A DNA stretch of 64,000 bases from Candidatus Saccharimonadales bacterium (GCA_041737385.1 JBGSRU010000002.1:269437-333436); one strand, 5' to 3'. Counted from the first letter of the stretch, positions 35,979 through 55,404 are shown. Made by a program: numbers and translations. The notes: generated by a model not told the origin, from the letters alone.

Positions 35979-36001
35979 AAATACATACAATTTGATATAA
36001 T
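35973..36001 (+). promoter_or_regulatory. Sigma70-like promoter for the leaderless ORF at 36009
   Basis: TTGACA (35973-35978), a 17-nt spacer, then TATAAT (35996-36001). ATG 36009 lies 7 nt downstream of the -10 box. Confidence 0.6.
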
Positions 36002-36008
36002 ATGTTAA

Positions 36009-36579: not shown

Positions 36580-36665
36580 AATCACGCGGGCTTGCAGGTT
36601 CTTGCGCAATTAATGTTTTAGGCAATTCAAATGAAATCATACTAACAGAGTGTAGCATATTGACA
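36580..36665. repeat. Copy 2 of the ~85-bp repeat: an orphan queA N-terminal fragment plus a duplicated promoter -35
   Basis: The minus strand encodes ISFELPKTLIAQEPASPRD, which matches the queA N-terminus. The segment ends in TGTAGCATATTGACA as in copy 1. Confidence 0.8.
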
Positions 36666-36688
36666 TATAGAATAGAATGTGTTATCAT
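36660..36688 (+). promoter_or_regulatory. Duplicated sigma70-like promoter
   Basis: TTGACA (36660-36665), a 17-nt spacer, then TATCAT (36683-36688). Confidence 0.45.
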
Positions 36689-37196
36689 TAGATCTTATGC
36701 ATACCTTCACGAACACAACAACCCTAACAGCTCAGGTGAAGTGACAAAAGGTTTTGTACTATCAGCCACACAAGAAAATGATGGCTTTAGCTTTGAGCTT
36801 TTATTTGGTCGAGCGCCGTCACATGATGATTTATTAATACATGCACCGTTTGATTATTCTATGCATAATCGACCAAATATACCACTCGTTGGTGTAAGTG
36901 CAGATGACCAAGTTGAAGCTTTTGATTTCGAGGTAAACTTTGAGCATGATTCTATAGATGGGTTTACAAAGATATCAATGTTCGATGAGACAGATAGTGT
37001 TGAGAACGTTGACGAAGCGTACGTGCATAAGTTTGTCGGCGGATTATGGCACGCCATAAGCAAAATTAAAGCGTTTGAAAACGGCGAAATTCTAAGATTA
37101 AGATTTATGAGCGGCTATGATTTAAGCAATCATTACATCAGGATATTTGAGTGTGGCTCAAAGGGTGAGTTGGTCGTTATTGGTCTGGGTGATTAG
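36660..37196 (+). CDS. Hypothetical acidic protein, start codon uncertain
   Basis: The frame is open from 36660, but that TTG is the promoter -35 itself. The first plausible in-frame start is GTG 36741. ATG 36697 is out of frame and opens only a 15-codon ORF. Confidence 0.4.
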   Translation: MTYRIECVIIRSYAYLHEHNNPNSSGEVTKGFVLSATQENDGFSFELLFGRAPSHDDLLIHAPFDYSMHNRPNIPLVGVSADDQVEAFDFEVNFEHDSIDGFTKISMFDETDSVENVDEAYVHKFVGGLWHAISKIKAFENGEILRLRFMSGYDLSNHYIRIFECGSKGELVVIGLGD

Positions 37197-41964: not shown

Positions 41965-42003
41965 ATGCTAAAAGTGCTTTTTTATTTTTGATTTTAAAAT
42001 TTT

Positions 42004-42308
42004 GTGGGTTACCTCGTCCCACACCCACGACATACTTTCTTGTGTTGACTATAAAGTATGCAAAGAAACAACAGCAGGGCAATATAGCACTATAGAAAAG
42101 CATGCAACTGCTCCAGTTCTTGCGGAACACTAAGGCGGTCAAAAGTGTTACATGTTTTAATTACTTTTGACTGGTCCTCAGAAATGATTCTGAATCAGCT
42201 CCATACTTTTCATCGGTATATCGCCTTTATGCTGGTTTAAAGCAAACTCAGGCATCAATTATCAGACATCAGACATTACTCATACTAGTTATATGCTGGT
42301 TTGGCTGC
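42004..42308. repeat. Structured intergenic repeat, copy A (hairpins H1, H2 and H3 plus two ATGCTGGTTT modules)
   Basis: H1 is GTGGG-N9-CCCAC (42004-42022). H2 is CATACTTT-N14-AAAGTATG (42031-42060). The conserved CAAAGAAACAACAGC follows. H3 is GTCAAAAGT-N16-ACTTTTGAC (42138-42171). ATGCTGGTTT occurs at 42229 and 42293. The copy is homologous along its whole length to 52017-52255. Confidence 0.8.
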
Positions 42309-42415
42309 AAACTGTAAATCTAAAATCAATAATCTAATATCTAATATCTCCATCGTCTATCAAACCATTTGACTGCAACTAGTAACAAGCTTCGATACAG
42401 AGTAAAATAAAATTA

Positions 42416-42829
42416 ATGGCAATTTATAAATCTAAATACAGCAAAATTAAAGCAAGTTCTCACTCTGTATTAATAAAAGAAACTAGAAAACAGTACCACA
42501 CTATTCAGAAAAAGAACCCACGTAGAGTGCCCTACGTTAGGTCTGCATACTTTACAAAGGATAAAATATTTGTAAATCTATTTTGGCCGCATTTACAACA
42601 AAAGACATCAGGAGATCAAGTTAGGCGATTGCAGTTATATGCATGTGCTATTGATTTAATTCGCAATTCAAAAAATACTCCAGAAACAATATTCACCCAC
42701 ACAGACAAAGAACACGCACTGCATCGCTTTGAAGGGTTAAGTGCTGATGGTGCAAAATTCTATGTTCAAATAAGAGAGAATAAACGGACAAACAGAAAAG
42801 ATTTTATGTCTTGTTTCCCTGCAAAATAA
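42416..42829 (+). CDS. Basic hypothetical protein
   Basis: 137 aa, Lys/Arg-rich. The YVQIRENKRTNRKDFMSCFP C-terminus resembles uncharacterised proteins I recall from small-genome bacteria. No functional motif found. Confidence 0.45.
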   Translation: MAIYKSKYSKIKASSHSVLIKETRKQYHTIQKKNPRRVPYVRSAYFTKDKIFVNLFWPHLQQKTSGDQVRRLQLYACAIDLIRNSKNTPETIFTHTDKEHALHRFEGLSADGAKFYVQIRENKRTNRKDFMSCFPAK

Positions 42830-43007
42830 AAAGGCCCTTTGCGCTGGGTAGCCTAGAAACTACGGGCAAAAGGTCTTAAAATTATATTAGCATAAGGGTA
42901 TGCCATATGTCAATTTGTGTAGAGGCAGTTCGGTAGGGTGTAAAAAGGCAGTCGTTCATTTTAAACATGCTTTTGTATAGACGCATCAATTACTATAAAA
43001 TTTGACG

Positions 43008-43562
43008 ATGAGCTCAAGCATAAATAGACTAGAATCTTTATTCGGAGAAGATAGACCACAGTTAGATGTGACCGCAGGATATGAGGATAGGAGTCCTGAT
43101 GGTATTGCTACAGAATTTTTAGCAGGCTTAGATGAGACGGAAAGAGAAGCTATTCAATCGCTAGCCGAAAGGGGACTAAATGATCCTTTATTATTTCCCG
43201 CCCATATTCACGCATTACTTGATGAGCTGGATGGCTATGACCCTAACCGCACTAAAGGTAGTAGCTACTATGCAACTGAAGAACTTAGAAGAATTGAACT
43301 ATGGTTTTCTGTACTGCATAATCGTGGAGCAGTTCCATATTTAAGGACTGAGTTTGACACAAAAACGAGTGTTGATGCCTCAATTACTTTTTGGGATATT
43401 TTAGAAATAGATCAGGTAAATAAACTAGAAGAACTTATGCACCCACCCTTTGAGCTTATAAACAGACACATACAAGATGAGGCTAATCCAAGCAGCAATT
43501 TCATGAAGACGATGTATGCTGTACTGGCACAGAGTATGCTAAGAGATAAAGCACAACAATAG
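43008..43562 (+). CDS. Hypothetical protein
   Basis: Open frame from TTG 43002 or ATG 43008. No recognisable motif. Confidence 0.4.
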   Translation: MSSSINRLESLFGEDRPQLDVTAGYEDRSPDGIATEFLAGLDETEREAIQSLAERGLNDPLLFPAHIHALLDELDGYDPNRTKGSSYYATEELRRIELWFSVLHNRGAVPYLRTEFDTKTSVDASITFWDILEIDQVNKLEELMHPPFELINRHIQDEANPSSNFMKTMYAVLAQSMLRDKAQQ

Positions 43563-43614
43563 ATTAGTAGTTCTTAAAATATCCGCCGTTTAAATTGTGC
43601 ATTATGCGTTGCTT

Positions 43615-44127
43615 TTAAAACAGCATCTTTTCAAGTGCTTTGATATCTCGTTGACGCCATTTATCTTGAGATATTAGGCCTTTATTATTAGCAATAATTG
43701 CTTCTTTTGATAGTAACGGGAGTGTAAAGCCTTCAAACTCGACATTCTCAACTTCAGGGAACCCATCTTTATAATACTTACTAAATACACTAACTTTTGG
43801 GTTATAAACAAGTAGTTCATCCATAGTGCACATATCTAAAACTTGTCCTTCAATATTTAACTCTAAATTATAGTTATTGTAATTCTCATCAACATAGTTA
43901 ATTAAATCTTGCGAAATATGTGGCTTTACATCCTTCAAAAAATTCCTAAACTCTGGGCTGTCTTTTGACGTATCAATGTCTATATCGATATCAGTCAGCA
44001 GCCTATCTACTCCGTATACATAGCATGCAAAACCACCTGTTATAACCCAGTCAAACTTATATATATTTAGTAAGGGGATTATGAAGTTTAAGGCTTTTCG
44101 GGCTTTTTGATTTTCTTTATGTGTCAT
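43615..44127 (-). CDS. Nucleotidyltransferase-fold protein (Lnu/ANT-like)
   Basis: WVITGGFACYVYGVDRLLTDIDIDID matches the GG...G..R...D.D pattern of lincosamide/aminoglycoside nucleotidyltransferase-like enzymes. The start is probably ATG 44127 (MTHKENQ), because the listed 44214 start runs into repeat copy B. Confidence 0.55.
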   Translation of the reverse strand: MTHKENQKARKALNFIIPLLNIYKFDWVITGGFACYVYGVDRLLTDIDIDIDTSKDSPEFRNFLKDVKPHISQDLINYVDENYNNYNLELNIEGQVLDMCTMDELLVYNPKVSVFSKYYKDGFPEVENVEFEGFTLPLLSKEAIIANNKGLISQDKWRQRDIKALEKMLF

Positions 44128-44184
44128 GAGAGGAGTATAGCAAGAATTGGAGTGAAGAACCGGCTGTCTTTTTAGAACCTGTTT

Positions 44185-44338
44185 GTGGGGTACCTCGTCC
44201 CATACTCTCAGCATTGATTCGGAAAATTATTGGACACATCACTCAGTTTTCACGCTTTATGCTGGTTTAAAGCAAACTCAGGCATCAATTATCAGACATC
44301 AGACATTACTCATACCAGTTTTATGCTGGTTTGGCTGC
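44185..44338. repeat. Structured intergenic repeat, copy B (H1 plus the right-hand 86-bp module; H2 and H3 absent)
   Basis: GTGGGGTACCTCGTCCCAT at 44185-44203. Segment 44253-44338 is nearly identical to 42222-42308 and includes both ATGCTGGTTT motifs (44259, 44323). Confidence 0.8.
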
Positions 44339-44352
44339 GAGCAGACAGGATA

Positions 44353-44381
44353 TTGACTTTTAGTACTCTTTGTGTTACTAT
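44353..44381 (+). promoter_or_regulatory. Sigma70-like promoter for the leaderless ORF at 44388
   Basis: TTGACT (44353-44358), a 17-nt spacer, then TACTAT (44376-44381). ATG 44388 lies 6 nt downstream. Confidence 0.55.
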
Positions 44382-44387
44382 ACAATT

Positions 44388-44960
44388 ATGAGTAATTGGG
44401 TACATTTTCCCCTTGACGTTCCGCGCCCTGATATAAACTCGGACTTCAACGAAAAACAAAGGGATGAGCTTGAACTACTTGTAGCACATCAAGTAAGCGG
44501 CTTACTTCGACATTACGGAGAAATAATTGATCAAGGCGTTGACAATTCAGGTTGCCCGGACGTTGACGAACCTCAAACGTTTTACGGTATTGAAGTCGAC
44601 TGCTTCGTTTTTGATGATGACAGCGAGTTACTATTAGGTCAATTTCCGGATAGCCCTGACGGATTCGTCACATCTGCAGGAGCTCATGCAGTACGGAAAT
44701 TGGATGATGATGGTTCGCCTGAATTTTGTATTACTGTCTGGGATCCCGAAGTTGATTCAGCAAATCGAGTACATACTTCCACAGGGGATAAAGTTGAACT
44801 TGCTACGCTAAACGAGCTTTATCATGTATTATTTGTAATAGCATCTGATTTTGCATTTACACACGACGCACCAGAAAATAATGATCCTTCAGAATATCCA
44901 ATACCAGTCGTTGAACCCATAATTGAAACTATGGCACAACAATTTTTAGGTGATGAATAG
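44388..44960 (+). CDS. Highly acidic hypothetical protein
   Basis: 190 aa from ATG 44388 (MSNWVHFPL), rich in Asp and Glu. No motif recognised. Confidence 0.45.
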   Translation: MSNWVHFPLDVPRPDINSDFNEKQRDELELLVAHQVSGLLRHYGEIIDQGVDNSGCPDVDEPQTFYGIEVDCFVFDDDSELLLGQFPDSPDGFVTSAGAHAVRKLDDDGSPEFCITVWDPEVDSANRVHTSTGDKVELATLNELYHVLFVIASDFAFTHDAPENNDPSEYPIPVVEPIIETMAQQFLGDE

Positions 44961-45116
44961 CTAATAACTTTCAACTAGGTCTCATAGACTGATTCAGCGC
45001 AGCAGCGTCACTCGTCACCTCTTTTTGCTGAAAAAGAAACTTGCATTAACCTTAATAAAGATTACGCCGTATTAAAATTATTTGTTTTTGTATAAATTTT
45101 ATTATATAATAATCTT

Positions 45117-45842
45117 ATGAGATCTGACCAACTACCATTCCATCCGTCTTTTGAGCGTACACGTAGAACAGACGAGGGTCACTTGATGTCTTCAGATCGT
45201 TTTCCTGATATAGTGATTAGAGATAGCACATATATCGATCCGAACGAAGACAGAATGTTTCTTGTCAGATCAGGCAATGAACAAATAAAGTTACTAGAGA
45301 CTCTAGGAATACAAACTGTAAACCCTCGACCGATAATTACTGAAACTGGAATTGCACTAGTGGTAGACAGAGTCCAAGGAAACACCCTGGAGGAAGAAAT
45401 AGAATCTGGCAACACAGAGGCAACAACTGAATATGGAAGAACTTTGGTTAAGTTGACTCAGTACTACAAAGGCAGTATAGAAGAACCCGGTACTGCTGTA
45501 CTGGGCGACATCGTTGCCTCATGCCAGTTCACGTGGCAGAATAACGAAGCCGTACTGCATGACATAAGCACCGTAAAAATGGATAAACTAAGCTTCGTTT
45601 TACTTAACAGCTGTCATATCGCTTACGAATTAGCCAGACATCATAAGTCATTTGACGAAGCCACAATAACAGAAATCACGAAAGGTCTTGGTGAAATAAG
45701 TAAATCTTTAGATGATAGTCAAGACATTGACCGTAAATCGAAATTATTCTTAAGCCTGACGCTAGCACTAGTAGAAAGTTCCCGGTCAGATACACTGCAA
45801 CTTCTAGCTGATGCTTACGATGCAGATGTTTTTGAAAATTAA
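45117..45842 (+). CDS. Hypothetical protein (weak kinase-like N-lobe resemblance)
   Basis: 241 aa. TATAAT at 45105-45110 lies 6 nt upstream of the ATG. LVVDRVQGNTLEEE resembles the hinge of APH/choline-kinase folds, but no clear catalytic loop is present. Confidence 0.4.
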   Translation: MRSDQLPFHPSFERTRRTDEGHLMSSDRFPDIVIRDSTYIDPNEDRMFLVRSGNEQIKLLETLGIQTVNPRPIITETGIALVVDRVQGNTLEEEIESGNTEATTEYGRTLVKLTQYYKGSIEEPGTAVLGDIVASCQFTWQNNEAVLHDISTVKMDKLSFVLLNSCHIAYELARHHKSFDEATITEITKGLGEISKSLDDSQDIDRKSKLFLSLTLALVESSRSDTLQLLADAYDADVFEN

Positions 45843-46191
45843 AAACATCTATTCCTGTCAACTATCCGCCTATACCGAATTCTTAATAGAATAGATACCA
45901 AAATAATCGCAGCGGGATAAAAAAGCAGGGTAAACTCATAGTCTATTTTTGCTTAAGTCAAGAACGCTTTGGCGTCCAGCAAACAATTCTTACGTTGTGT
46001 GTTTCTGGATTAGCTTTCTGCTTGACTCAAAAATAAACTATAAGCCTTCTCTGACTCCTCCTCATTATGCTGGTTTAGCTGCAGAGATATTAAAAAACTA
46101 ACAACTATAAATTTATAATGGTTAAATTAATAATCTGTAATAATTGCCATCCGTAAAAGGTCAGAATTTCATTTTTATTTTTTTAAATTGA

Positions 46192-47664
46192 TTATTTATT
46201 CCTATTATTTAATTTTATTGTTTGTGTAACACCAATAGCTTTGAAGAAAAATTCATCATGTGATGAAATCAGCATAGCGCCTTTATATTTTTCTAAAGCC
46301 TGTTCGATGTTTTCTCTTGTTGGTATGTCTAAGTGATTTGTCGGTTCATCTAAGATCAACAAGTCATTTTTAGCAAGTAGTAACTTTGCGAAACTTAGCT
46401 TAGACTGTTGGCCACGAGATAATTCACTTGGGTATTTTTTCAAATCTGTTCCACCCATGCCGAGTGCGCGCGCCTCACGGTAAATGTCTGTTATGTCCGC
46501 ATCGGAGTCAAGCAAGTTATCTAACGCAGTTTTAGAGGTATCAATTCCGTCGACATCTTGTGACAGATATCCAATAGAAATATTTTCTCCGACAGTAACT
46601 TTACCACTTGTTGGACTAATTTCACCTAATGCTATCTTTAGTAGAGTAGATTTACCGCTACCGTTCTTGCCATTTATCCTAAATCGATCATTGCCCCGCA
46701 CTTCAAAAGACAGGTTGCTAAAAAGTTTTTTACTGAACTCCATCGAAACATCTTCCACGCTCAATACAAGTTTGTGCAAATGTGCTCCGCCATCAATAGC
46801 TATTTTATAGCTTCTTTTGTTCTCTGGTTTATCGAGCTCACTAATTTGCTTCAAACGCGATTCCATAGAACGTACTTGCTGTCCATACTGCCTAGTTACA
46901 CGGTTCTTGAAATAGTCCCGTTGAGCCTTGTCATTATCCGTGCGCTTGATGTGTTTATGAGTGTGCAGTTCTAATTCACGACGCTGTCTAAGAGCACTCT
47001 CTACCCGTCTACGTTCTTCGATGCTTGCTTCGTACGCTTCTTCTGCGTGGAGACTTTCAAGGTCCTTTTGTTGCCTATAGTTATCATAGTTTCCGCTATA
47101 GACTTTCAGGATTCCTGATTTAAGATCTAATATCTTAGATGCAGATTTATTAATGAAGTTACGATCATGGCTTATTATCACTACTGAGCCCTTAAAATGT
47201 TTTACATATTTTTCTAACCACACTAGGCCTTCCGCATCAAGGTTATTGGTAGGCTCATCTAGTAGTAGTACGTTAGGTTTAGGCTGTTTTGCTAGAACTA
47301 TAGCTATAGCAAGACGAGTTTTCTCACCACCGCTTAAAAGCTTCGTGTTAAAATCCATTGGTTTTTTTAAGCCAACGTCTTGCAACGCTAAATCAATTCG
47401 CCATTGTTCAGTATCGTCATCAAAGCACTGATTAATAGCCGTTCCAAAATCCTCTTGCTGTGGTACATAACCAGCAGCTGCACTCGGAACCTCGACTTTT
47501 CCATTATCGGGCTTGATTTTACTTAGCAGAATCTTTAACAGCGTCGTTTTGCCAGCTCCATTTTCACCAATAAGAGCAATAACCTCGTTGTGAAGCGTGA
47601 GGTTTATATCTTTAAGGACTTCTTTAGCCCCAAAGGATTTACTAATATTTATGAGTTTATACAT
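46192..47664 (-). CDS. ABC-F family ATPase (two ABC cassettes, no TM domain), ARE/translation-factor type
   Basis: Walker A GENGAGKTT and GKNGSGKST, signatures LSGGEKTR and LSRGQQSK, and Walker B LLLDEPTNNLD and LILDEPTNHLD. A charged interdomain linker is present. The start is ATG 47664 with a GGAGA RBS. Confidence 0.85.
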   Translation of the reverse strand: MYKLINISKSFGAKEVLKDINLTLHNEVIALIGENGAGKTTLLKILLSKIKPDNGKVEVPSAAAGYVPQQEDFGTAINQCFDDDTEQWRIDLALQDVGLKKPMDFNTKLLSGGEKTRLAIAIVLAKQPKPNVLLLDEPTNNLDAEGLVWLEKYVKHFKGSVVIISHDRNFINKSASKILDLKSGILKVYSGNYDNYRQQKDLESLHAEEAYEASIEERRRVESALRQRRELELHTHKHIKRTDNDKAQRDYFKNRVTRQYGQQVRSMESRLKQISELDKPENKRSYKIAIDGGAHLHKLVLSVEDVSMEFSKKLFSNLSFEVRGNDRFRINGKNGSGKSTLLKIALGEISPTSGKVTVGENISIGYLSQDVDGIDTSKTALDNLLDSDADITDIYREARALGMGGTDLKKYPSELSRGQQSKLSFAKLLLAKNDLLILDEPTNHLDIPTRENIEQALEKYKGAMLISSHDEFFFKAIGVTQTIKLNNRNK

Positions 47665-47676
47665 ATTTTCTCCAAA

Positions 47677-47723
47677 CAAAAAACCGAGCACGTTGTTGAC
47701 TAGTAGTCACACGAATGCTCGGT
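47677..47723 (-). terminator. Leader terminator (attenuator) immediately upstream of the ABC-F RBS
   Basis: The minus strand reads ACCGAGCA-N25-TGCTCGGT followed by TTTTTT, and ends 7 nt before the GGAGA of the ABC-F gene. Confidence 0.65.
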
Positions 47724-47785
47724 ACTTTTAGATAGAGTTAACTGATATAACAATCAATAGCAAAGTCTGCACGAATTCGTGTGAT

Positions 47786-47809
47786 CTAGCTGTTGATTGT
47801 GTCTATCAT
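47786..47809 (-). CDS. 7-codon upstream ORF (MIDTINS) in the ABC-F leader
   Basis: ATGATAGACACAATCAACAGCTAG on the minus strand, preceded by AAGGAG. The stop is followed directly by ATCACACGAAT, which is complementary to ATTCGTGTGA inside the terminator loop. Confidence 0.5.
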   Translation of the reverse strand: MIDTINS

Positions 47810-47836
47810 TTGTATAAAAACTCCTTATTTGTATAG

Positions 47837-47865
47837 ATATTACCATAAACAAGAAGGTTGGTCAA
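47837..47865 (-). promoter_or_regulatory. Sigma70-like promoter of the ABC-F leader
   Basis: The minus strand reads TTGACC, a 17-nt spacer, then TAATAT. Confidence 0.55.
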
Positions 47866-47922
47866 CAATATTGCTTGTGTTTTTCAATCTGCCAGCCCTC
47901 AAGAGAAACTCAGCTGTTGATA

Positions 47923-48861
47923 TCAACTAATCTGCTCGTTAAACTTATCCACCAATTCTGTTACGTGTGACCATTCCTTCATGAGATTCATGGTATCTAG
48001 TAAGATATATGCTTTTATCCTATCTTTAAGCAAGGGATGTTTGAACATTTCAGGGTAGTACTTTTCATACCAACTGCGGAGGTTTTTGTAGTCTTCAGGC
48101 ATAGCAAACTTTTCGTTTTCTTCAGTAGCGTACTTCTTTGGGTCGTCCATGAGCTTCGTTACTACAAATAGAGGATAGTCTACAGCACAGACATCAACAC
48201 TCTCTAGATCAATGAGAGCTTTAAGCTTAAAATTATCATCAACAATAATATTGTCGAAATGTACGTCCCAGAAAACAGGGCACATTTTATCCGTCTTGAG
48301 GGCGTCTAGATACTTACTAAACGTATTCTTTAGCGCAGAATCCTGAGCCTGAGCGATTATATTCTTATCAAGTAGTTCTCTGGCCATATCCTCAAGTCTT
48401 GTTTGCAGGTAAATGTGCCAGGGCTGGTCTTGCTCGCTAGGCAAAAACTCGACGCTAATCTTGTTAATTTTTCTTAAAATAGTTGATAGGTCTTTGACGA
48501 TGGCTTCTCTTTGAGCGTCGGTTGCAAGATGCCATACATGCCCTAAAACAGGGCCGTCTACGAACGCCATGAATATGTAATGTCTTCTATCGTCCGTCTC
48601 TCCTTCGGCAACAAAAGATGGTCTTGCAAAATCTATATCCGAGCTAAGTATCGCACGTTCAGTTTGGTACCGCTTATTACCATCTTCAGACTTATAGATT
48701 TTAAGTACCAGGTCATCATTAATTTTATAGACCTCGTTCATAAAGCCTATTGTTATTCGTGAATGAGTAAAATACTCTATGTCATTTAGTTCGCATAGTT
48801 GCTTGATCTGGTCTGTGCTGAACGTTGATTCTGGATTCATTACGCTAAATATCTTCCACAC
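47923..48861 (-). CDS. Aminoglycoside/macrolide phosphotransferase-like kinase (APH/ChoK fold)
   Basis: Catalytic-loop-like FWDVHFDNIIV (D-x4-N) followed by ALIDLES (the DFG equivalent), in a protein of about 300 aa. Confidence 0.65.
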   Translation of the reverse strand: MWKIFSVMNPESTFSTDQIKQLCELNDIEYFTHSRITIGFMNEVYKINDDLVLKIYKSEDGNKRYQTERAILSSDIDFARPSFVAEGETDDRRHYIFMAFVDGPVLGHVWHLATDAQREAIVKDLSTILRKINKISVEFLPSEQDQPWHIYLQTRLEDMARELLDKNIIAQAQDSALKNTFSKYLDALKTDKMCPVFWDVHFDNIIVDDNFKLKALIDLESVDVCAVDYPLFVVTKLMDDPKKYATEENEKFAMPEDYKNLRSWYEKYYPEMFKHPLLKDRIKAYILLDTMNLMKEWSHVTELVDKFNEQIS

Positions 48862-48905
48862 ATATGGTTAGCTTATTTATCTGGCCTTCAAGTTTTTCGA
48901 TTGTG

Positions 48906-49460
48906 CTATTCACTGATCAACTCCTTAATACGCTGTGTACCCTCGTTAATAGGCTGTGTCCCGTCAATAACCATATCTGCGTACTCTTTTGGCGCATCTC
49001 GAACTAAATATTTATCTTCATTTTCAAACCACTGATCCCACATAGCTACAATTTCTTCATCTGACTTGCCTTCATTTCCTTTATCCCTAGCAAGTCCGCG
49101 CTCCAGACAAATTTCTTTTGGCGTATCTACATACACCCCAAAGTCTATATACTCACGAAGCTCTTTGCGCAGTGCCGATACGCCCTCTAGAATCATGATC
49201 TCGGTAACTGGCTGATCAACAACAGGTTCTGGTTTGTGGTCTGCCCACCATTTTGACCTTGGATAACTTAATTTTGTTGCGCCTTGCCTGACCGGCTCAA
49301 GAACCCGTTCAATCACAAGTGGCCACCAATTGATAGGATTATAAAAGGACGCGAAATCATCAGTATGAATAATCTCTGCGCCCAGCTCTTTAGCTAATTC
49401 TTGGGCAAGAGTAGATTTACCAGATCCACCATGTCCGTCTATTGCTATGAACTTAGTCAT
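48906..49460 (-). CDS. P-loop nucleoside/nucleotide kinase-like protein
   Basis: IAIDGHGGSGKSTLAQELAKELG Walker A at the N-terminus, with the size and layout of uridine-kinase/NMP-kinase-like proteins. Confidence 0.6.
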   Translation of the reverse strand: MTKFIAIDGHGGSGKSTLAQELAKELGAEIIHTDDFASFYNPINWWPLVIERVLEPVRQGATKLSYPRSKWWADHKPEPVVDQPVTEIMILEGVSALRKELREYIDFGVYVDTPKEICLERGLARDKGNEGKSDEEIVAMWDQWFENEDKYLVRDAPKEYADMVIDGTQPINEGTQRIKELISE

Positions 49461-50046
49461 TCCTTAAATCATTCCAATTCGTTCTAGGCAATAATGCCTC
49501 TGATCCATTTCTACAAAGCACACATTCGTCAGGAGAATACTTACTGGTCTTCATGGATGCAGCCGATAGTATTCTACGGCGATTGAGCGTTTCTTGACCG
49601 GTCATATTTGCAAGACAGTATACGAGATCGACTACTTTGATGCCCTTTGACTCTAATTCCTGAATTGTAGCTAAGGCAGCACCTCCGCCGTACATATCAT
49701 CTGCGACCACAAGTGCCGTTGATCCATCAGGAATACTGAATGTTGTCACGTATTTTTCTGATGGCAGAGTGTACGCAAACTTAGCACCTAAGAGCTTCGC
49801 TGCTTCAAAAGCGATAGGAATGCTGTAGGGAGCATAGCCAACAATATAATCAATATTGTCTGAGAGTTCAGGCAATAAAGTTGATTTGATAATTTCAGAT
49901 ATAAGCTGCGGTTCTTGAGTTATCACATCCGAATTAAAGTATGCATCTACATACTTGCCAGACATGGATGTTTTGACGTGAGGACCAACTCCACCGTAGC
50001 ACCAAAACGCTCCTTTTTCTTCAAGAACTTTTTTCCAATTAGTCAT
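49453..50046 (-). CDS. Phosphoribosyltransferase (orotate-PRT-like)
   Basis: PRPP motif ALVVADDMYGGGAA and the upstream IVGYAPYSIPIA pattern. An 8-nt overlap couples it to the downstream kinase gene. Confidence 0.6.
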   Translation of the reverse strand: MTNWKKVLEEKGAFWCYGGVGPHVKTSMSGKYVDAYFNSDVITQEPQLISEIIKSTLLPELSDNIDYIVGYAPYSIPIAFEAAKLLGAKFAYTLPSEKYVTTFSIPDGSTALVVADDMYGGGAALATIQELESKGIKVVDLVYCLANMTGQETLNRRRILSAASMKTSKYSPDECVLCRNGSEALLPRTNWNDLRND

Positions 50047-50449
50047 TTTTTCGTCTTTCTTGCTATGGATTATGACACAAAGAACAATCTGAGTACATTA
50101 CGGCTTGTTTGGCACACAAGAATAATTGTTAGACTGTAGAGTTAAATCACTTCACCTTTGTTATTCGCTTCATGCTGGATTAACTAATTTATTGACTATT
50201 TTTCTAAAGTTAAAATATTTTAGCTTCATTAGAGTATAATAAACTCGGCGATATAGTCACTTTCATAAATTTAGACTATAGGCTTTTAACTCAAGCAATC
50301 ACACTTCGGTCACTGTGCGCTTGCAATCCATATTTAGTTTCCCAGTATTGGCTATCGTGAGTAACGGCTCTTACATAGTTTTAGCTCGGTAACTACTAAA
50401 CCAAAACCCGTTATATATCACTTAATATCTCTTTTAGGTTTAGTTTAAT

Positions 50450-50734
50450 ATGGATCCAACTCAAGTAATAAATCAGCGTGTTGAAGTGGCTGTCTTTTAC
50501 AGAAAAGATTGCGACATTAGTATGTTGGCGTACCCGGTTAAAATGAAATATAAAAACCAAGAAATACTTTTTACTCGTTTAGGTCTCAGGCACGAAACAG
50601 CTAAAGGCAAAAGAATGATTCACGTGTTTGATATGTCAGATGGTGTAAATGATTATAGATTAGAATTTGATGCACAAGGCTTAACCTGGACACTCGTTGC
50701 GATTATCCCGGGCGTCTATGAGGCAGGGAAATGA
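50450..50734 (+). CDS. 94-aa hypothetical protein translationally coupled to the Y-family polymerase
   Basis: Its stop overlaps the polymerase start (ATGA, 50731-50734). It shows no S24 peptidase (UmuD) or YolD motif. Confidence 0.5.
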   Translation: MDPTQVINQRVEVAVFYRKDCDISMLAYPVKMKYKNQEILFTRLGLRHETAKGKRMIHVFDMSDGVNDYRLEFDAQGLTWTLVAIIPGVYEAGK

Positions 50735-51987
50735 ACTACGATTTAAACCAAGACGAACCAAGAATAATGTGGGTAGATTTGAATAGTGCATTTGCAATGG
50801 CAGAACAGCAAGCCCATCCATCACTGCGCAACAAACCACTAGGCGTGACGAACAGACTGTCAAAAGAATGCTGCGTCATTGCAGCCTCATATGAAGCGAA
50901 GGCTCTTGGAATAAAGGTGGGGGTTAGACGCTCCGAAGCGAAAGCACTCTGTCCCGACTTCATCATGCTAGAGACTGATCCACCAAAATACCATCACGTA
51001 TACAAAAAACTAGCGGCAATAATGAAAAGTTACTGTCCAGATGTAAAGATGAAAAGTATAGATGAAGGAATTATGGACTTTAGAAAGATGGACAAAACTT
51101 ACACAACAGAGCGCCTGATTGCTATCGGCTACGAAATGAAAGAGCGCGTCAAAACTGAAATTGGAGACTATATAAAAATAAACGTAGGAATCGCGCCTAA
51201 TAGATTCTTGGCTAAAACAGCAGCCGGTTTGCACAAGCCGGACGGGCTTGACGTCATAGACCATAGGAACCTAATAAAAGTCTACAGGTCGTTAGAACTA
51301 CAAGATTTAAACGGCATAGCTGATGGCTATGGAAGCAGGTTAAGATCGTTTGGCATTGCAACACCAATGCATTTTCTTAATGCTCGTGAAGACCTACTCC
51401 GCAAACAAGTTTTCAAAAGTATAAACGGAATGCACTGGTATAAGAGACTTAGGGGCTATGAAGTGGACGACTACGAAACCAACATAAGCATGGTTGGCCG
51501 TCAGTGGGTAGTGAAGAGTCCAAGCAACAACGAAGACTACCTGCGTTCATGTCTGCATTTCCTAGCTGAAACAACTGGCATGAAACTACGTTACAGAAAT
51601 GTCGAAGCTAGAGGCGTTGCAGTCTGGCTGGCCTTCCAGTCTGGGGAAGTATTCTCAGACAAAAAAATGTACAAAACTGGAGTTTTTACTAACGAAGATA
51701 TTTGGCTTCGTGTATCGAAAATATTTAACAACCGCCCCAAGCATATGGTGGTCAGAACCATGGGGCTATATTTATATAAACTTGAACCGTCTAGTCGCAG
51801 TCAAATTGGCTTATTTCACAATACTGAAAAATCACAATACATTACCGAGGCAATGGATGAGATAAACGATTTCTATGGTTCATTCACCGTGTTTTCAGGC
51901 GACTCACTTGAAGGAACCAAGCACGTGAAACAGAAAATTCCATTCGGCGGTACAGAGTATTTCGATTTATTATTAAAGAGACAATAA
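50731..51987 (+). CDS. Y-family DNA polymerase (UmuC-like translesion polymerase)
   Basis: MWVDLNSAFAMAEQQ...LRNKPLGV resembles the UmuC N-terminus (D-x-N-x-F-Y-A-S-x-E). The catalytic SIDEG motif is retained, and little-finger-size C-terminal domains are present. Confidence 0.8.
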   Translation: MNYDLNQDEPRIMWVDLNSAFAMAEQQAHPSLRNKPLGVTNRLSKECCVIAASYEAKALGIKVGVRRSEAKALCPDFIMLETDPPKYHHVYKKLAAIMKSYCPDVKMKSIDEGIMDFRKMDKTYTTERLIAIGYEMKERVKTEIGDYIKINVGIAPNRFLAKTAAGLHKPDGLDVIDHRNLIKVYRSLELQDLNGIADGYGSRLRSFGIATPMHFLNAREDLLRKQVFKSINGMHWYKRLRGYEVDDYETNISMVGRQWVVKSPSNNEDYLRSCLHFLAETTGMKLRYRNVEARGVAVWLAFQSGEVFSDKKMYKTGVFTNEDIWLRVSKIFNNRPKHMVVRTMGLYLYKLEPSSRSQIGLFHNTEKSQYITEAMDEINDFYGSFTVFSGDSLEGTKHVKQKIPFGGTEYFDLLLKRQ

Positions 51988-51993
51988 TTTATT

Positions 51994-52255
51994 GTGGCTT
52001 TTCGCGCCACACTAAAGTGGGTTACTTCGTCCCACACCCTCGACATACTTTCTTGTGTTTACTAGAAAGTATGCAAAGAAACAACAGCGGGCGATAAAAG
52101 CGCGACACACTCAAAACAACTTTGCACTGTGCCTGCGGGACTCCCGTTGGTCGGTCAAAAATGTTTCTTGAAGTTACATATTTTTGACTTGTCCTCGGCA
52201 ATGACTCAGCGCGAAGTTGCTCCAAGTGATCGGTTTTACCGCTTCATGCTGACTC
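51994..52255. repeat. Structured intergenic repeat, copy C (H0, H1, H2, H3 and one ATGCTG module)
   Basis: H0 is GTGGC-N7-GCCAC (51994-52010). H1 is GTGGG-N9-CCCAC (52017-52035). H2 is CATACTTTC-N12-GAAAGTATG (52044-52073). H3 is GTCAAAAAT-N17-ATTTTTGAC (52154-52188). ATGCTG occurs at 52246. Confidence 0.8.
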
Positions 52256-52284
52256 AATACAAGCTTGAGAAGTATTGACAGATG

Positions 52285-52293
52285 TGATATAAT
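52285..52293 (+). promoter_or_regulatory. Extended -10 promoter (TGaTATAAT) for the leader transcript
   Basis: TGATATAAT at 52285-52293, with ATG 52301 lying 7 nt downstream. The nearby TTGACA (52275-52280) is only 7 nt away and so is not a functional -35. Confidence 0.5.
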
Positions 52294-52300
52294 ATATCTA

Positions 52301-52399
52301 ATGAATAAAATCAGTATTTCAGTTTCAACAGAACACCTTTTGCAGCAAGCTGCGGTATTTTTTGGTTTTATCTCTTTTATCCAGGCGGTAGCTCCTTAG
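52301..52399 (+). CDS. Candidate 32-aa Phe-rich leader peptide (MNKISISVSTEHLLQQAAVFFGFISFIQAVAP)
   Basis: Leaderless ATG. Four TTT Phe codons fall within seven codons (52358-52378), and the ORF end overlaps the antiterminator segment GGCGGTAGC (52384-52392). Confidence 0.45.
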   Translation: MNKISISVSTEHLLQQAAVFFGFISFIQAVAP

Positions 52400-52431
52400 A
52401 ACGTATTAAACGACCATAAATAATTACAAAA

Positions 52432-52457
52432 GCGACCGCCAGAAAGCGGTCGTTTTT
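52432..52457 (+). terminator. Leader terminator of the PheRS-like operon (attenuator)
   Basis: CGACCGC-cagaaa-GCGGTCG followed by TTTTT, 14 nt upstream of the GGAGA RBS of the 52485 ORF. Its 5' arm is complementary to 52384-52392. Confidence 0.6.
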
Positions 52458-52484
52458 AATTAAATATTAATTGGAGAAATTACT

Positions 52485-52676
52485 ATGAGTGAAATACAAA
52501 AATATATTGGAGAAGAGTTAGATAAACCAGAAACCCTAAGCAAACAGTTAGATAAACAAGATGATGGGCTTGAAGTTGAAGCCAGTGTAGCGCCTGTAAC
52601 CGAACTTGGAGCTGGTGAAATAATAGCCTTATCACTAGATGATATTGTTCCGCGTAGCTGGAAAAGCTGGGAATAG
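52485..52676 (+). CDS. 63-aa acidic protein, function unknown
   Basis: The GGAGA RBS lies 8 nt upstream, and the stop lies 2 nt before the next start. It is very acidic and has a C-terminal ALSLDDIVPRSWKSWE. Confidence 0.5.
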   Translation: MSEIQKYIGEELDKPETLSKQLDKQDDGLEVEASVAPVTELGAGEIIALSLDDIVPRSWKSWE

Positions 52677-52678
52677 TC

Positions 52679-53818
52679 ATGAAAATGAATATTAAGCCAC
52701 TAACAAAGGCTCAGGCAGATTACTACCTGAGCCTCCCAGATCTTACAAAAGAAGAGAGCAATCATGCGGTTGGCTTGCTGTACAGAAAAATCAAAAAGAA
52801 AATAGAATCAACACATCCAGATAGTGAAATTATGATCTATCGGGATAATCAGATCATTTCTATTGAAGATAACTATGAAAACTTGCTGATTCCAAAATAC
52901 AATATTAGTCGTTCATCTACCTACACACATTATGTAGATGGGGGTACGTTGCTACGAACTCACGCATCATCAGCAATACCTGGCGCTATGCGTGAGCTTG
53001 CAAAACGCAGCGACTGGAATGACGTCGTGATTCTCGTTCCAGGACTCGTATACAGGCGTGATGTGGCAGATAAGAAACATGTCGGACAGATTCACATGCT
53101 AGATGTTTGGCGTGTTGTAAGAACAGCCGGCAGGCCAGAAGTTACTCACGATACACTTCTAGGTGCAGTTAAAGATATAGCAGCAACAGCTGCACCTGGG
53201 TGGATGCTACGCATTGAGGATTCACCTCATCCATACACTGACGGCGGCATTGAGGTTAATGCCGTCAACAAAGATGATGGACGAGATATAGAAATACTAG
53301 AGTGTGGACTCATCAAAAAAGAAGTCTTAAAAATCAATGGCCTAGACCCACGGGTCTATTCAGGATGGGCGCTCGGTATGGGGCTCGACAGACTCGTTAT
53401 GACGCTGAAGGATTTACCAGATATACGTTATTTGCGTTCAGGTAACCCTAAAATAGCTAAACAAATGCTAAACCTTAATACGTATTTGGAAGTGTCTAGT
53501 CAGCCTGCAATACAGCGCGATATGTCCTATTCAGTACCTGAAAGTTACGTTGAAGAGGATATATCTCAAGACATAATGTCTGCAATGGGTGATGATATAG
53601 CAGCTCTTGAAGAAGTAGAGATATTAAACGAAACCAGCTACGAAGACTTGCCGGATACAGCACGTAAAAATCTTGGCATACAATCAGACCAAAAGAATGT
53701 GCTAGTTCGTGTGACGTTGAGGCATCTAGAAAAAACGCTAACTAGTAAAGAGGCCAACATAATCTATGACAATATCTACCCACAAATTAACTACGGGGCA
53801 GCGGGGTACGCATCATGA
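52679..53818 (+). CDS. Single-chain PheRS-like class II aminoacyl-tRNA synthetase homolog (alpha-type catalytic core plus a C-terminal FDX-ACB-like domain)
   Basis: LLRTHASSAIPG aligns with LLRTHTS. Motif 2 is GLVYRRDVADKKHVGQIHMLDV. Motif 3 is GWALGMGLDRLVMTLKDLPDIRYL. The C-terminal PAIQRDMSYSVP...VLVRVTLRHLEKTLTSKEANIIY resembles the ferredoxin-fold anticodon-binding domain. Confidence 0.7.
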   Translation: MKMNIKPLTKAQADYYLSLPDLTKEESNHAVGLLYRKIKKKIESTHPDSEIMIYRDNQIISIEDNYENLLIPKYNISRSSTYTHYVDGGTLLRTHASSAIPGAMRELAKRSDWNDVVILVPGLVYRRDVADKKHVGQIHMLDVWRVVRTAGRPEVTHDTLLGAVKDIAATAAPGWMLRIEDSPHPYTDGGIEVNAVNKDDGRDIEILECGLIKKEVLKINGLDPRVYSGWALGMGLDRLVMTLKDLPDIRYLRSGNPKIAKQMLNLNTYLEVSSQPAIQRDMSYSVPESYVEEDISQDIMSAMGDDIAALEEVEILNETSYEDLPDTARKNLGIQSDQKNVLVRVTLRHLEKTLTSKEANIIYDNIYPQINYGAAGYAS

Positions 53819-53863
53819 TTATTTCGACAACATCAACTAACTTATATTTGATAGACTAAACAT

Positions 53864-54883
53864 ATGAAACAAGAAAAAATTATCAGAACAGTTTGTGTAT
53901 TTACAAAAGAACCCAATGATTCGTCCATTGATAGATTAGACTTAATTGTTCAAAAACTCGAGCAAAACGGCTATATTGTGCAAACAAAACGAGTCGCATC
54001 GACAGTTGATTATCTTAATGAGCTTGTTGCGCTTACGCAGAAAGGCATTGAATACGTGAGTGTTGGCGATGTAACTACTGAACAAGCACTAGAAATACTG
54101 CCTACTTTCTATGAAAACAAGGCACTTACATTCAATATAGAGCTAGCAAAAGAAGAAATATCTCAGAAGCATGTAGATATACTCCACAAAATCATAGAAA
54201 ACAACGCTTCGAAAACATTTAGCTTCACCTATACCTTCAACAACGCAGCTTCCAGCCCATATTTTCCATCTGCTCGCTTCGTAGAAGATGGTTTTGCCAT
54301 AGGACTGCAGCCAACCGATCTGTCTGTCGGCTGTGATACGCTCGAAGAATGGCTAGAAAACATGCATAAAACATGGCAAGAGATTACCGATCTATTTGCC
54401 AACGAACCAGATTTTCTAGGTATTGATAGTTCTATAGCCCCGCTACTTGACGGAAATAGCAGTTTTATAAACTTCATAAAACGGCTTGGGCTTACATTCG
54501 AACAAACAGTAACTACGGATATGTACACGACAATAACGAAGTTTCTAAAAGAACAGAACCCTAAGCCTATAGGTCTATGCGGCATGATGCTCCCGTGTTT
54601 AGAGGATTTTGAATTAACTACAGAATACGAGGCAGGAAACTTTTCTATTGAAAGAAATGTTTTCTTGTCATTACATTCAGGGCTAGGTATAGATACCTAT
54701 CCCATTGGCGTCGATGAAAAGCCAGAGCGTGTAATAGAAATACTAAAGCTAATCCAGTCGCTGTCAAATAAGTACAATAAGCCACTTTCTGCTCGTTTTG
54801 TTTCAGACGGCAAAGCTAAAATCGGTGAAAAATCTGATTTTCAAAATCCTTATCTCAAAGATTGCGTGATTCGTCCGCTTTAG
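53864..54883 (+). CDS. DUF711 / UPF0210-family-like protein (shortened, 339 aa)
   Basis: Collinear similarity, judged from memory, to UPF0210 proteins. The matching segments are IIRTVCVF, QTKRVA, SSPYFPSARF, LGIDSSIAPL, GLCGMMLPCLED and GLGIDTYPIGVDEKPERV. Confidence 0.55.
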   Translation: MKQEKIIRTVCVFTKEPNDSSIDRLDLIVQKLEQNGYIVQTKRVASTVDYLNELVALTQKGIEYVSVGDVTTEQALEILPTFYENKALTFNIELAKEEISQKHVDILHKIIENNASKTFSFTYTFNNAASSPYFPSARFVEDGFAIGLQPTDLSVGCDTLEEWLENMHKTWQEITDLFANEPDFLGIDSSIAPLLDGNSSFINFIKRLGLTFEQTVTTDMYTTITKFLKEQNPKPIGLCGMMLPCLEDFELTTEYEAGNFSIERNVFLSLHSGLGIDTYPIGVDEKPERVIEILKLIQSLSNKYNKPLSARFVSDGKAKIGEKSDFQNPYLKDCVIRPL

Positions 54884-55056
54884 TTTCTAGTAATAGTATC
54901 AATAATTACTATTTGCTCGTCTATTTCTTGTTTTGTGCGCGGATCGGGTTTCTTGGGGCCTAAGATTTTTGAAAATATACCCATATTTATTTATATATAG
55001 TAGCAACTTTTTTATTTTTCTAAGGCGGAGAATTCTTCCGAACAAGTTAAGAGTTT

Positions 55057-55125
55057 GTGGCTTTTCGCGCCATGTTGAATTCTTCATTTCTTGTGTCGAC
55101 CAGAAACGAAGCAAAGAAGCGACGG
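55057..55125. repeat. Structured intergenic repeat, copy D (H0 plus an H2 with compensatory substitutions)
   Basis: GTGGCTTTTCGCGCCA (55057-55072) equals 51994-52009. H2 is CTTCATTTC-N12-GAAACGAAG (55082-55111), with the conserved loop TTGTGT and the trailing GCAAAGAAGCGACGGCGGG. Confidence 0.65.
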
Positions 55126-55404
55126 CGGGAAATAGACGAAAAGCTATGAGTTTTTGTTGATTGTAATCACAATGCAGACTATTTAGGCGTTCTCTTGAAG
55201 TTCACTTCCTCCTCAAGCTGCAACGTCCGCAATATTGTAATTAACAACAACAAACTCATCGGTTCGCCATTCTTTTATGCCGATTGACTGCAGAAACTCA
55301 CTTCAGGAGTAAGAATATAACGGAAATTTACTCTCGAACATCCGCAAATCATTCGACAAAAGCTACCTACCCAACACCAAAAGGTAAACCACCCGCGCCG
55401 CCGC

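Follow-up and report, generated by a model that had tools for sequence, protein, structure and literature searches.

The intergenic repeats in the window (the whole 64-kb stretch of Saccharibacteria DNA analysed here) are copies, now decaying, of a multi-copy element of about 250 nt that does not code for protein. They represent a previously uncatalogued family of structured elements with a patchy distribution across at least six bacterial phyla. The fold of the element is selected as a single strand. Its nearly invariant core forms a hairpin and a pseudoknot, plus probably a triple helix, as judged from sequence covariation.

Read on the + strand of the window, a unit comprises an optional hairpin H1 or H0, the hairpin H2, a purine linker, a pseudoknot tail and a rod, in this order. 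H2 is a 12-bp hairpin of nearly invariant sequence, its 5' arm made of pyrimidines and its 3' arm of purines. The linker (8–9 nt, purine) repeats the H2 purine arm in mirror order, and the pseudoknot tail consists of four or more bases complementary to the H2 loop. Each full unit in the window finishes with a rod of 163–167 nt. The rod (~165 nt in general) carries conserved internal and apical motifs, and its unpaired motifs ACAAUGC and AACUC-hairpin-CUCAAACA are conserved across phyla. The unit ends read GTGGG.../TTTCG... and ...TATGCTGGTTTGGCTGC. The copies in the window and their parts are as follows.

42004..42234, + strand: copy A, full unit; H2 with two stem mismatches
42004-42022, 42031-42060 and 42061-42068, + strand: H1, H2 hairpin and purine linker of copy A
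42069-42072 and 42072-42234, + strand: pseudoknot tail CAAC and rod of copy A, with the apical hairpin H3 at 42137-42172
42225..42308, + strand: 3' extension of 84 nt, common to copies A and B
44185..44338, + strand: copy B, internal deletion derivative; no core match by profile search
45908..46083, + strand: possible copy E, rod-only remnant, with the 3' terminal motif TATGCTGGTTTAGCTGCA at 46066-46083
51992..52251, + strand: copy C, full unit; one H2 mismatch and one pseudoknot mismatch
51992-52009, 52017-52035, 52044-52073 and 52074-52081, + strand: H0, H1, H2 and linker of copy C
52082-52085 and 52085-52251, + strand: pseudoknot tail and rod of copy C, with the apical hairpin H3 at 52153-52189
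55055..55286, + strand: copy D, full unit of a second subfamily; core intact
55055-55072, 55082-55111, 55112-55119 and 55120-55123, + strand: H0, H2, linker and tail CGAC of copy D
55120-55286 and 55275-55294, + strand: rod and 3' motif TTATGCCGATTGACTGCAGA of copy D

All copies in the window lie on the + strand, in a low-GC accessory/defence region in which type III restriction-modification, HEPN and toxin-antitoxin genes occur. Three of them, A, C and D, are complete units of ~230–260 nt each. Copy A is 93% identical to C over 75 nt and 98% identical to B over 84 nt; copy D likewise has the H2 hairpin and the GCAAAGAA core. Three matches to the 32-nt core pattern are present in the window (0.00 expected from dinucleotide shuffles), and a profile search of the 64 kb yielded no core copy beyond those in A, C and D. 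The repeats reported in an earlier sequence-only reading are thus present where they had been placed, with two corrected boundaries: the start of C moves to 51992 so as to include an additional hairpin H0 (18 nt, the same in copy D), and D reaches ~55286 and not 55125. The four copies counted there are real, but B is internally deleted and a fifth possibly lies at 45908-46083.

The copies form a decay series from the intact D through the slightly damaged C and the damaged A to the fragments B and E. In copy D, the loop TGTCGA is complementary to the tail CGAC; its nearest relatives are the loci L011 and L060. The pseudoknot mismatch of copy C is found between the loop TGTTTA and the tail CAAC, and the centre of its rod (GGGACTCC..GGTCGG-hairpin-TTGTCCTC) is also present in five other loci (L014, L037, L044, L054 and L215). 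Copy A is regarded as decaying because H2 has two mismatches, one of which falls on the C-G level matched by the linker G. Within its 3' extension, the 11-nt sequence TATGCTGGTTT is directly repeated, at 42228 and 42292, with 53 nt between; the extension closes with the 3' terminal motif of the unit, TATGCTGGTTTGGCTGC. Copy B retains H1 (44185-44203) and the 84-nt 3' extension (44255-44338), together with a remnant of the descending rod strand, and is devoid of H2, the pseudoknot and the rod interior. For copy E, the 18-nt 3' motif is the only part with a score above that of shuffles (31 vs at most 28). The copy starts with CAGCGGGATAAAA and is 174 nt long, which is compatible with a rod and hints weakly at a possible fifth remnant. 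In the nearest relatives (helicase identity 78–80%), other genes lie downstream and no copy occurs within 10 kb. In a Logan assembly of the same strain, contigs break inside the 42225..42308 repeat.

The stem changes that had drawn attention to the repeats are confirmed. H3 reads GGTCAAAAGT/ACTTTTGACT in A and GGTCAAAAAT/ATTTTTGACT in C, with one compensated pair. Between C and D, H2 differs by two compensated pairs and one A.C mismatch, and H1 is present in A, B and C. The small minus-strand ORFs at 41954-42142 and 52022-52225 use different frames over the shared bases, as had been noted: the offset between the copies is 10013 and that between the ORF starts 10083, and the difference of 70 is 1 mod 3. 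What is conserved is nucleic-acid structure, not protein. The covariation of the stems is not only real but far stronger than first seen, as pseudoknot and triple-type covariation is found across phyla.

Neither the H2 loop nor the tail is fixed by the search pattern, and between them five Watson-Crick combinations occur. Diverged copies supply additional loop/tail pairs; at least eight different complementary pairs are observed. The loop-tail covariation score is 0.213 vs 0.066 in shuffles, and none of the 500 shuffles reaches as high a value. The loop thus pairs with a flanking segment, with compensatory change, in the manner of an H-type pseudoknot.

Whenever the fourth stem level, counted from the loop, is a C-G pair, the linker carries a G (117 sites, 20 of which lie outside the positions fixed by the search pattern). 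At the same level, U-A is accompanied by a linker A at 137 sites and by a linker C at one. The crossed combinations, C-G with A and U-A with G, were not seen at these stem/linker sites. The mirror rule holds exactly in five types of arm (CAAGAAAG, CAGAAAG, CAGAAGAAAG, CAAAAGAAAG and CAAGAGAAAG), the rarer of which are represented by one to ten examples each. Reading the linker as a direct repeat of the arm fails in four of the five. Since the linker mirrors the H2 purine arm base for base in five variants, base triples are indicated. The three-way covariation is that of a loop-helix triple helix, which is here predicted from covariation.

The two strands each have features in favour of folding. 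U.A-U and C+.G-C triplex chemistry points to the complement of the window + strand, as does the excess of A.C over G.T mismatches (41 vs 21 in one count and 116 vs 62 in another). The pseudoknot points to the + strand, on which loop 1 (1 nt) and loop 3 (8–9 nt) fit the classical H-type. Folding energies controlled for composition do not discriminate between the strands. The best reading is that the element acts as RNA or single-stranded DNA.

The search for further copies beyond the window, proposed in the earlier reading, revealed the same core at over 220 loci in six phyla. The exact core pattern is present in 104 stretches from ~40 genomes, and a sister core type in at least 120 further metagenome stretches. 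The genomes with the exact core pattern belong to Saccharibacteria and other Patescibacteria, Burkholderiales, Oscillospiraceae, Gastranaerophilales, Campylobacterota and Nitrospinota. The core is conserved in host genomes of 60–68% G+C and remains AT-rich even in high-GC Pelomonas. Copy number varies, with many copies in some genomes and few in others. A Faecousia MAG contains at least 17 copies of ~500 nt that are ~80–95% identical to a reference copy, many of them at contig ends.

The orientation relative to neighbouring genes is arbitrary, with ++, --, +- and -+ about equally frequent. An all-against-all comparison of the flanking ORFs of the 104 + 120 loci showed no shared protein family, and no recurrent protein is found within ~3 kb of the 224 copies. 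No transposase, integrase, RAYT, TnpB, tnpA, iscB or reverse transcriptase adjoins the 224 loci, and in the window no integrase, transposase or reverse transcriptase is nearby. Inverted pairs (330–515 nt apart) are present in Burkholderiales, where such doublets are stereotyped and the rule, and in some Saccharibacteria. Solitary units are common, for example in the window, the Faecousia MAG and Gastranaerophilaceae, and predominate in the first two. The pairs resemble long terminal repeats; the single units have no second end. In five Pelomonas/Roseateles species, an inverted pair occupies one orthologous site and shows compensatory changes. Here the core is 96% identical, the flanking genes 85–95% and the rods 41–68%. 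That the pair has persisted for so long at one orthologous site, with compensatory change, suggests a function maintained at individual loci, something that a purely selfish repeat would not require.

Rfam 15 contains no matching family for the window, 33 related loci or single units, at gathering as well as permissive thresholds, in agreement with the initial impression that this is no known RNA family. The only matches (tRNA, SAM and SAM-II) all lie away from the units, over which chance hits alone are seen. A full-text literature search gave no match to the element sequence. The element fits the 'mobile/repeat sequence candidate' category of PMC11109978 in having multiple copies per genome and inconsistent orientation relative to neighbours, but lacks the frequent association with transposase, integrase, nuclease or helicase.

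The best explanation, which we hold with about even confidence, is that the repeats constitute a new family of selfish, non-autonomous structured repeats similar to MITEs or REPINs. The selfish and mobile character is suggested by the Faecousia copies, the lack of orientation bias, the housekeeping neighbours and the decayed or truncated copies of the window. As neither a target-site duplication nor an empty site was found, mobility is what we infer; the copy boundaries are ragged. The triplex-pseudoknot core would be recognised by a factor encoded elsewhere or by a universal host factor, and most likely the element would give rise to a putative compact, nuclease-resistant transcript. The low-GC accessory/defence region of the window would be a tolerant insertion zone in which five copies accumulated, rather than a series of recombination boundaries. 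The proposal that the copies delimit accessory gene blocks is not generally supported, as in other genomes they lie between housekeeping genes (such as metK, polA and topA) in either orientation. More tentatively, the core and rod could constitute the functional portion of a self-propagating or self-protecting element of a new class, acting as RNA or single-stranded DNA. The intramolecular triplex might then serve as a mobility handle, a catalytic or exonuclease-resistant fold, or a decoy in phage conflict.

Alternatively, the units could be stand-alone genes for a trans-acting structured RNA (an RNP scaffold, ribozyme or decoy) that are retained for a function in the cell or in defence and have spread through horizontal transfer and duplication rather than transposition. 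The cross-phylum conservation of unpaired rod motifs, the compensatory changes at the persistent site in five species, the invariance of the core across genomes of very different G+C and the position of the window copies within a defence island are in line with such a gene. This explanation is nevertheless unlikely, because the strict core is patchy (~40 of 185,579 species genomes), copy number is uneven between genomes, decayed or truncated copies are frequent and the Burkholderiales pairs are stereotyped. Furthermore, no partner protein gene is linked and no promoter or terminator signal stands out at the units.

A fold in single-stranded DNA, formed during replication as the recognition structure for a trans-encoded enzyme specific for single strands (for instance a recombinase, or a HUH/Y1 transposase as in REPINs with RAYTs or IS200/IS605 ends), is rather improbable. 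A pyrimidine-motif triplex (T.A-T, C+.G-C), with which the mirror rule agrees, is well established in DNA chemistry, and the bias between G.T and A.C holds equally for DNA. IS200/IS605 transposases define their cleavage sites via base pairing within DNA, which provides a precedent, and the inverted pairs resemble REPIN doublets. However, no Y1/HUH gene lies near any copy, and a 165-nt rod with conserved loops far exceeds the needs of known single-strand transposon ends. Additionally, solitary units are common and the members of a pair show opposite senses on either strand.

There is still less reason to expect that the units are cis-acting parts of mRNAs (stabilisers, processing sites or terminators) like enterobacterial REP/BIME sequences. 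Units do abut the stop codon or start of a neighbouring gene, often with the H1 side 30–70 nt from the gene, and in Pelomonas the 500 nt that separate two co-oriented genes are taken up by the pair. A compact pseudoknot-triplex could also block exonucleases. Yet neither neighbour is favoured in orientation and T-run terminators are absent. In the window, the downstream promoters lie beyond the unit, which is therefore outside the leaders of those genes. Finally, attC-like or similar recombination sites bounding mobile gene cassettes are very improbable even though five co-oriented copies part gene groups over 13 kb of a low-GC accessory region, since the window is devoid of an integrase or other recombinase, the would-be cassettes hold one to eight genes on both strands (some with their own promoters), the units have 230–260 nt instead of 57–141 nt and lie between housekeeping genes in other genomes, and copies A, B and E are damaged.

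Like the element, attC sites are structured, fold as single strands and lie between genes of variable regions. They have 57–141 nt with R/L boxes and extrahelical bases, 3' of single promoterless ORFs and with an adjacent integron integrase, none of which applies to the element; the attC inverse core sites R''/L'' and L'/R' (RYYYAAC ... GTTRRRY) are absent from the units, as judged by reading the sequence. Neither size nor architecture fits the attC-like or IS200/IS605-end-like site that had been considered, and no integrase, transposase or reverse transcriptase is near. IS200/IS605 ends, PATEs and remnants of omega-RNA (TnpB/IscB) have hairpin ends in single strands or RNAs of 150–300 nt with pseudoknots and triplexes, and are cross-phylum and often orphaned. 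The element differs in that no omega-RNA-type match is found in Rfam, tnpA, tnpB and iscB do not adjoin the 224 loci, and its most conserved module is not beside a variable guide-like segment.

In the telomerase RNA pseudoknot, the SAM-II and preQ1-II riboswitches and the ENE/MALAT1-type U.A-U / C+.G-C triple helices, as in the element, a loop pairs with a flank and a linker matches the helix, base by base. As in such triplexes, the change from C-G to U-A in the helix is tracked by a change from G to A in the linker (C to U on the complement). These RNAs are single-copy with known ligands or roles, whereas the element is multi-copy, has its core attached to a 165-nt rod and matches none of them in Rfam.

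Bacterial MITEs whose RNA folds stably, such as Correia/NEMIS, ERIC, RUP/BOX and Bacillus cereus bcr1, resemble the element in being small, non-autonomous and intergenic, with arbitrary orientation and decayed copies. Some of them are transcribed and affect mRNA. These MITEs are lineage-specific and have terminal inverted repeats and target duplications; in the element no target duplication was found, solitary units have no second end and a tertiary fold is selected. REPs are species- or genus-specific sequences of 20–40 nt, whereas the element has ~250 nt and a 32-nt core across six phyla, and, unlike REPs, a pseudoknot, a triplex-type linker and a rod, with no RAYT near its copies. REP/REPIN sequences (mobilised by RAYT) and BIMEs nevertheless share with the element a non-coding, multi-copy and intergenic nature, frequent inverted doublets that fold into long hairpins, compensatory change and persistence at orthologous sites.

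Positions 1–41 kb of the window hold housekeeping genes (pentose-phosphate pathway, purine synthesis, queA). Beyond 42 kb the G+C content drops from about 0.43–0.45 to 0.36–0.40 and the genes are accessory (nucleotidyltransferase-like protein, ABC-F ATPase, APH kinase, uridine-kinase-like protein, Y-family polymerase and a PheRS-like paralogue with DUF711) or defence-like (type III restriction-modification, HEPN, SocA antitoxin and GIY-YIG). No integrase, transposase or reverse transcriptase was found in the 64-kb window. The four repeats claimed by the sequence-only reading are real and lie at the positions it gave; its three hairpins and their compensated pairs were verified as well. Each unit comprises a small hairpin (H1 or H0), a 12-bp hairpin (H2), a purine linker, a pseudoknot tail that pairs with the H2 loop and a long rod. 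All copies in the window are on the + strand.

33321-33392, minus strand: tRNA
37768-41067: helicase gene
42004-42234, + strand: copy A, with a rod of 163 nt and two H2 mismatches in the core
44185-44338, + strand: copy B, retaining H1 and the descending rod strand, with H2 and the rod interior missing
ending at 46083, + strand: copy E, likely a rod-only remnant with the 3' motif of the unit
51992-52251, + strand: copy C, with a rod of 167 nt, one stem mismatch and one pseudoknot mismatch
55055-55286, + strand: copy D, with a rod of 167 nt and an intact core

The 32-nt pattern of the core occurs three times in the window, where 0.00 occurrences are expected, and a profile search of the 64 kb found no further core copies. 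The 18-nt H0 hairpin is identical in C and D. Copies A and B have an 84-nt 3' extension in common. Inside it, at the 3' end of the unit (42228-42302 in A and 44258-44332 in B), 53 nt are bracketed by the 11-nt direct repeat TATGCTGGTTT. This may be a small insertion that duplicated its target, or it may stem from duplication by slippage. In the Logan assembly of the same strain, contigs break inside the A/B repeat. Relatives of the window genome (78–80% helicase identity) carry other genes downstream and have no copy within 10 kb; the region is thus variable.

Several other features were observed in the window. The minus-strand ORF 41062-41964, which adjoins copy A and encodes a 300-aa protein, contains three tandem DNA repeats (41461-41884) of about 102–105 nt each that are 68–86% identical. 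The encoded 'IIDNSNLIVE-EPAAEE' segments precede a weak winged-helix-like C-terminus (DUF7342, below threshold). A 108-nt segment is present twice (35894-36001 and 36580-36688, 686 nt apart, 72–90% identity). It contains a promoter (TTGACA...TATAAT) and the opening codons of a minus-strand queA-like gene, so that the same promoter-like module precedes each of two small, unrelated + strand ORFs (36009-36572 and 36660-37196). At 35975-36011, 44353-44390 and 52265-52293, strong promoters of the sigma-70 type, each with an extended -10 (TG), lie 6–8 nt ahead of an ATG start codon, suggesting that many mRNAs of the genome are leaderless. The 3' end of the tRNA gene is overlapped by two repeats, one of 29 nt that is exact and one of 25 nt with 92% identity (32519-32547, 33141-33183 and 33312-33336), which together enclose the ORF of a small membrane protein (32595-33002). 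They resemble remnants of att sites left by an element that integrated at this tRNA. The accessory PheRS alpha-like gene (379 aa, tRNA-synt_2d with FDX-ACB domain) and the DUF711 gene form a pair at 52679-54883, between copies C and D and within the defence-like region.

A search pattern for the core, in which the loop and several stem positions were left free, was run over 185,579 species genomes and matched 104 stretches in about 40 of them. The element is carried by Saccharibacteria and other Patescibacteria, by Pelomonas, Roseateles and Rhizobacter, by a Faecousia MAG and one other Oscillospiraceae genome, by Gastranaerophilales, and by one genome each of Campylobacterota and Nitrospinota. 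All of them, including the high-GC Pelomonas (above 60% G+C), have the core CYTACTTTCTTG-TGTNNA-CAAGAAAGTRG-CAAAGAAR-N'N'AC. One copy pair, without annotation, is present on a Comamonas plasmid. A second scan, which required the fourth stem pair not to be C-G, yielded at least 120 additional metagenome stretches, and nearly all matches listed belong to a sister core type, ACTTTTTTG-loop-CAAAAAAGT-NNN-CAAAAA. Some numbered loci (L) of this type have the rod of window copy C (L215) and others the apical loop of Pelomonas (L169, L177, L232). As rods and apical loops are common to both core types, these form one family. On some metagenome and viral contigs the sister-type core is arranged in tandem, with three copies about 380–500 nt apart (L140, L153, L189, L232); this arrangement was seen neither in the window nor in Burkholderiales. 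Two further contigs, from a Gastranaerophilaceae MAG (L012) and a Muribaculaceae MAG (L049), are alike in element and flanks, and the contig in one of these bins is probably misassigned. In agreement with the earlier statement that no known RNA family was recognized, no Rfam family matched the window, 33 related loci or single units. A search of literature full text with the core sequences found nothing relevant.

The pseudoknot is formed by two free bases of the H2 loop and the two bases after GCAAAGAA-N, all of which were left open by the search pattern. They occur as CG/CG, TG/CA, AA/TT, CA/TG and GG/CC. In 30 non-redundant cores, 95% of the cells pair, and the covariation score of 0.213 (0.066 in shuffles) was reached by none of 500 shuffles. 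Diverged copies add the pairs GCGC/GCGC, GCCA/TGGC, GCTA/TAGC and CGCA/TGCG as well as pairings of 6–7 bp, e.g. CTTGATC/GATCAAG. The outer pairs of H2 covary among A-U, C-G and U-A.

The linker is more than a passive spacer. At the fourth stem level, C-G is accompanied by G in the linker at all 117 sites, 20 of which the pattern did not force, and U-A by A at 137 sites; at one further U-A site the linker has a C. The crossed combinations, C-G with linker A and U-A with linker G, are absent among the sites scored. Starting at its 5' C, the linker reproduces the sequence of the H2 purine arm from stem bottom to top, and this mirror rule is exact in the arm types CAAGAAAG, CAGAAAG, CAGAAGAAAG, CAAAAGAAAG and CAAGAGAAAG. 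Such a pattern is the trace that six to eight consecutive base triples would be expected to leave. A direct repeat of the purine arm fails to describe the linker for four of the five arm types, and an alternative Watson-Crick pairing with the 5' arm fails in the few copies with an inverted stem pair (L169, L177).

The rod closes beside the pseudoknot tail. Its conserved motifs are ACAAUGC together with either GRAACUC-hairpin-CUCAAACA or GGGACUCC..GGUCGG-hairpin-CUAGUCCUC. The folding of whole elements is much more stable than that of shuffles, with z-scores of about -9 to -10. At the level of sequence comparison, selection is shown to act on the single-strand fold, which consists of hairpin, pseudoknot, linker-helix contacts and rod; this bears out the earlier proposal of conservation at the level of nucleic-acid structure.

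On the question of which strand folds, the evidence points both ways. On the complement of the window's + strand the triples would be of the parallel U.A-U / C+.G-C type, an established triplex chemistry, the third strand lying in the deep groove. The isolated + strand mismatches also favor the complement: A.C outnumbers G.T by 41 to 21 and by 116 to 62, and these A.C mismatches would read as G.U pairs there. For the + strand speaks the loop geometry, in which a single unpaired base flanks the paired loop segment on either side and a connector of 8–9 nt lies downstream, which would agree with the usual steric rules of an H-type pseudoknot. The raw folding energy of the minus strand is better by 6 kcal/mol; this advantage vanishes in z-scores and is thus a composition effect. 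The fold could also belong to single-stranded DNA.

Outside the window, the neighbors of the element are ordinary genes, e.g. metK, polA, topA, dprA, pyk, glyS, uppS and tsf, and the four neighbor-orientation classes occur at about the same frequency. Across the 104 + 120 loci, the surroundings of the element share no protein family; two rounds of flanking-ORF clustering returned only spurious ORFs overlapping the element. In Burkholderiales, the units are arranged in convergent inverted pairs, 330–515 nt apart, which fold as one long hairpin. Five Pelomonas and Roseateles species have an inverted pair at one shared intergenic site. In this orthologous pair the core is 96% identical and the flanking genes 85–95%, but the rods only 41–68%, with many compensatory changes and an internal deletion in one species. 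The Faecousia MAG contains at least 17 copies of about 500 nt that are about 80–95% identical to a reference copy. Many are located at contig ends. Their ragged borders lie amid other REP-like hairpins, so that no clean target site was found there. A different REP-like repeat, about 85 nt long and containing the hairpin GGCAAGCTG-N5-CAGCTTGCC, borders several copies (locus L007, 2340-2435 and 2915-2995, and other Faecousia loci), and the repeats of this MAG form mosaics.

The element is widespread, uncatalogued and non-coding. Protein coding was rejected: no position of the palindromic core varies, indels do not come in threes and the two small minus-strand ORFs (41954-42142 and 52022-52225) read the shared bases one frame apart, as their coordinates and those of the copies confirm. 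On the favored reading, the element belongs among the selfish, non-autonomous repeats of the MITE/REPIN kind and is probably active as a compact RNA, and the copies in the window would reflect accumulation and decay in a permissive accessory region. In three other readings, the units may be a family of trans-acting RNA genes, a single-stranded-DNA recognition structure for an unlinked enzyme, or a cis-acting mRNA element. A T-box or other leader was considered since copy C precedes the PheRS-like gene; it was rejected on the missing Rfam match, the lack of an orientation bias and the promoters that follow the unit. The attC-like cassette boundary suggested by the sequence-only reading is unlikely. 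A phage origin was dismissed, as the strict core is absent from IMG/VR and only one of two matches to a looser pattern resembles a real unit. There was no match to tRNA or tmRNA fragments as island att sites, and by inspection and Rfam search none of group I/II introns, hammerhead, twister, pistol, hatchet, HDV, retron msr-msd, 6S, SRP Alu domain, bridge RNA and omega-RNA fits.

The repeat finding is real and more interesting than first described; its novelty is the family and the fold, not a role in delimiting gene blocks. The AT-rich 32-nt core is almost unchanged from Saccharibacteria with 40% G+C to Pelomonas, implying a constraint that is strong and shared; this would be a partner molecule or a demanding fold and has not previously been described. 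As a mobile repeat, the element would be non-autonomous, cross-phylum and without a known driver. As an RNA gene, it would be an orphan RNA class of considerable size, present in the candidate phyla radiation, from which, to our knowledge, few non-coding RNAs are known. In practice, it breaks assemblies (Faecousia MAG, Logan contigs) and produces spurious small ORF calls such as the two in the window. Natural triple helices backed by three-way covariation are rare, and bacterial ones are known mainly from a few riboswitches. Apart from gene association, in which it does not match, the element corresponds to the category of 'mobile/repeat sequence candidate' (PMC11109978) in both copy number and orientation.
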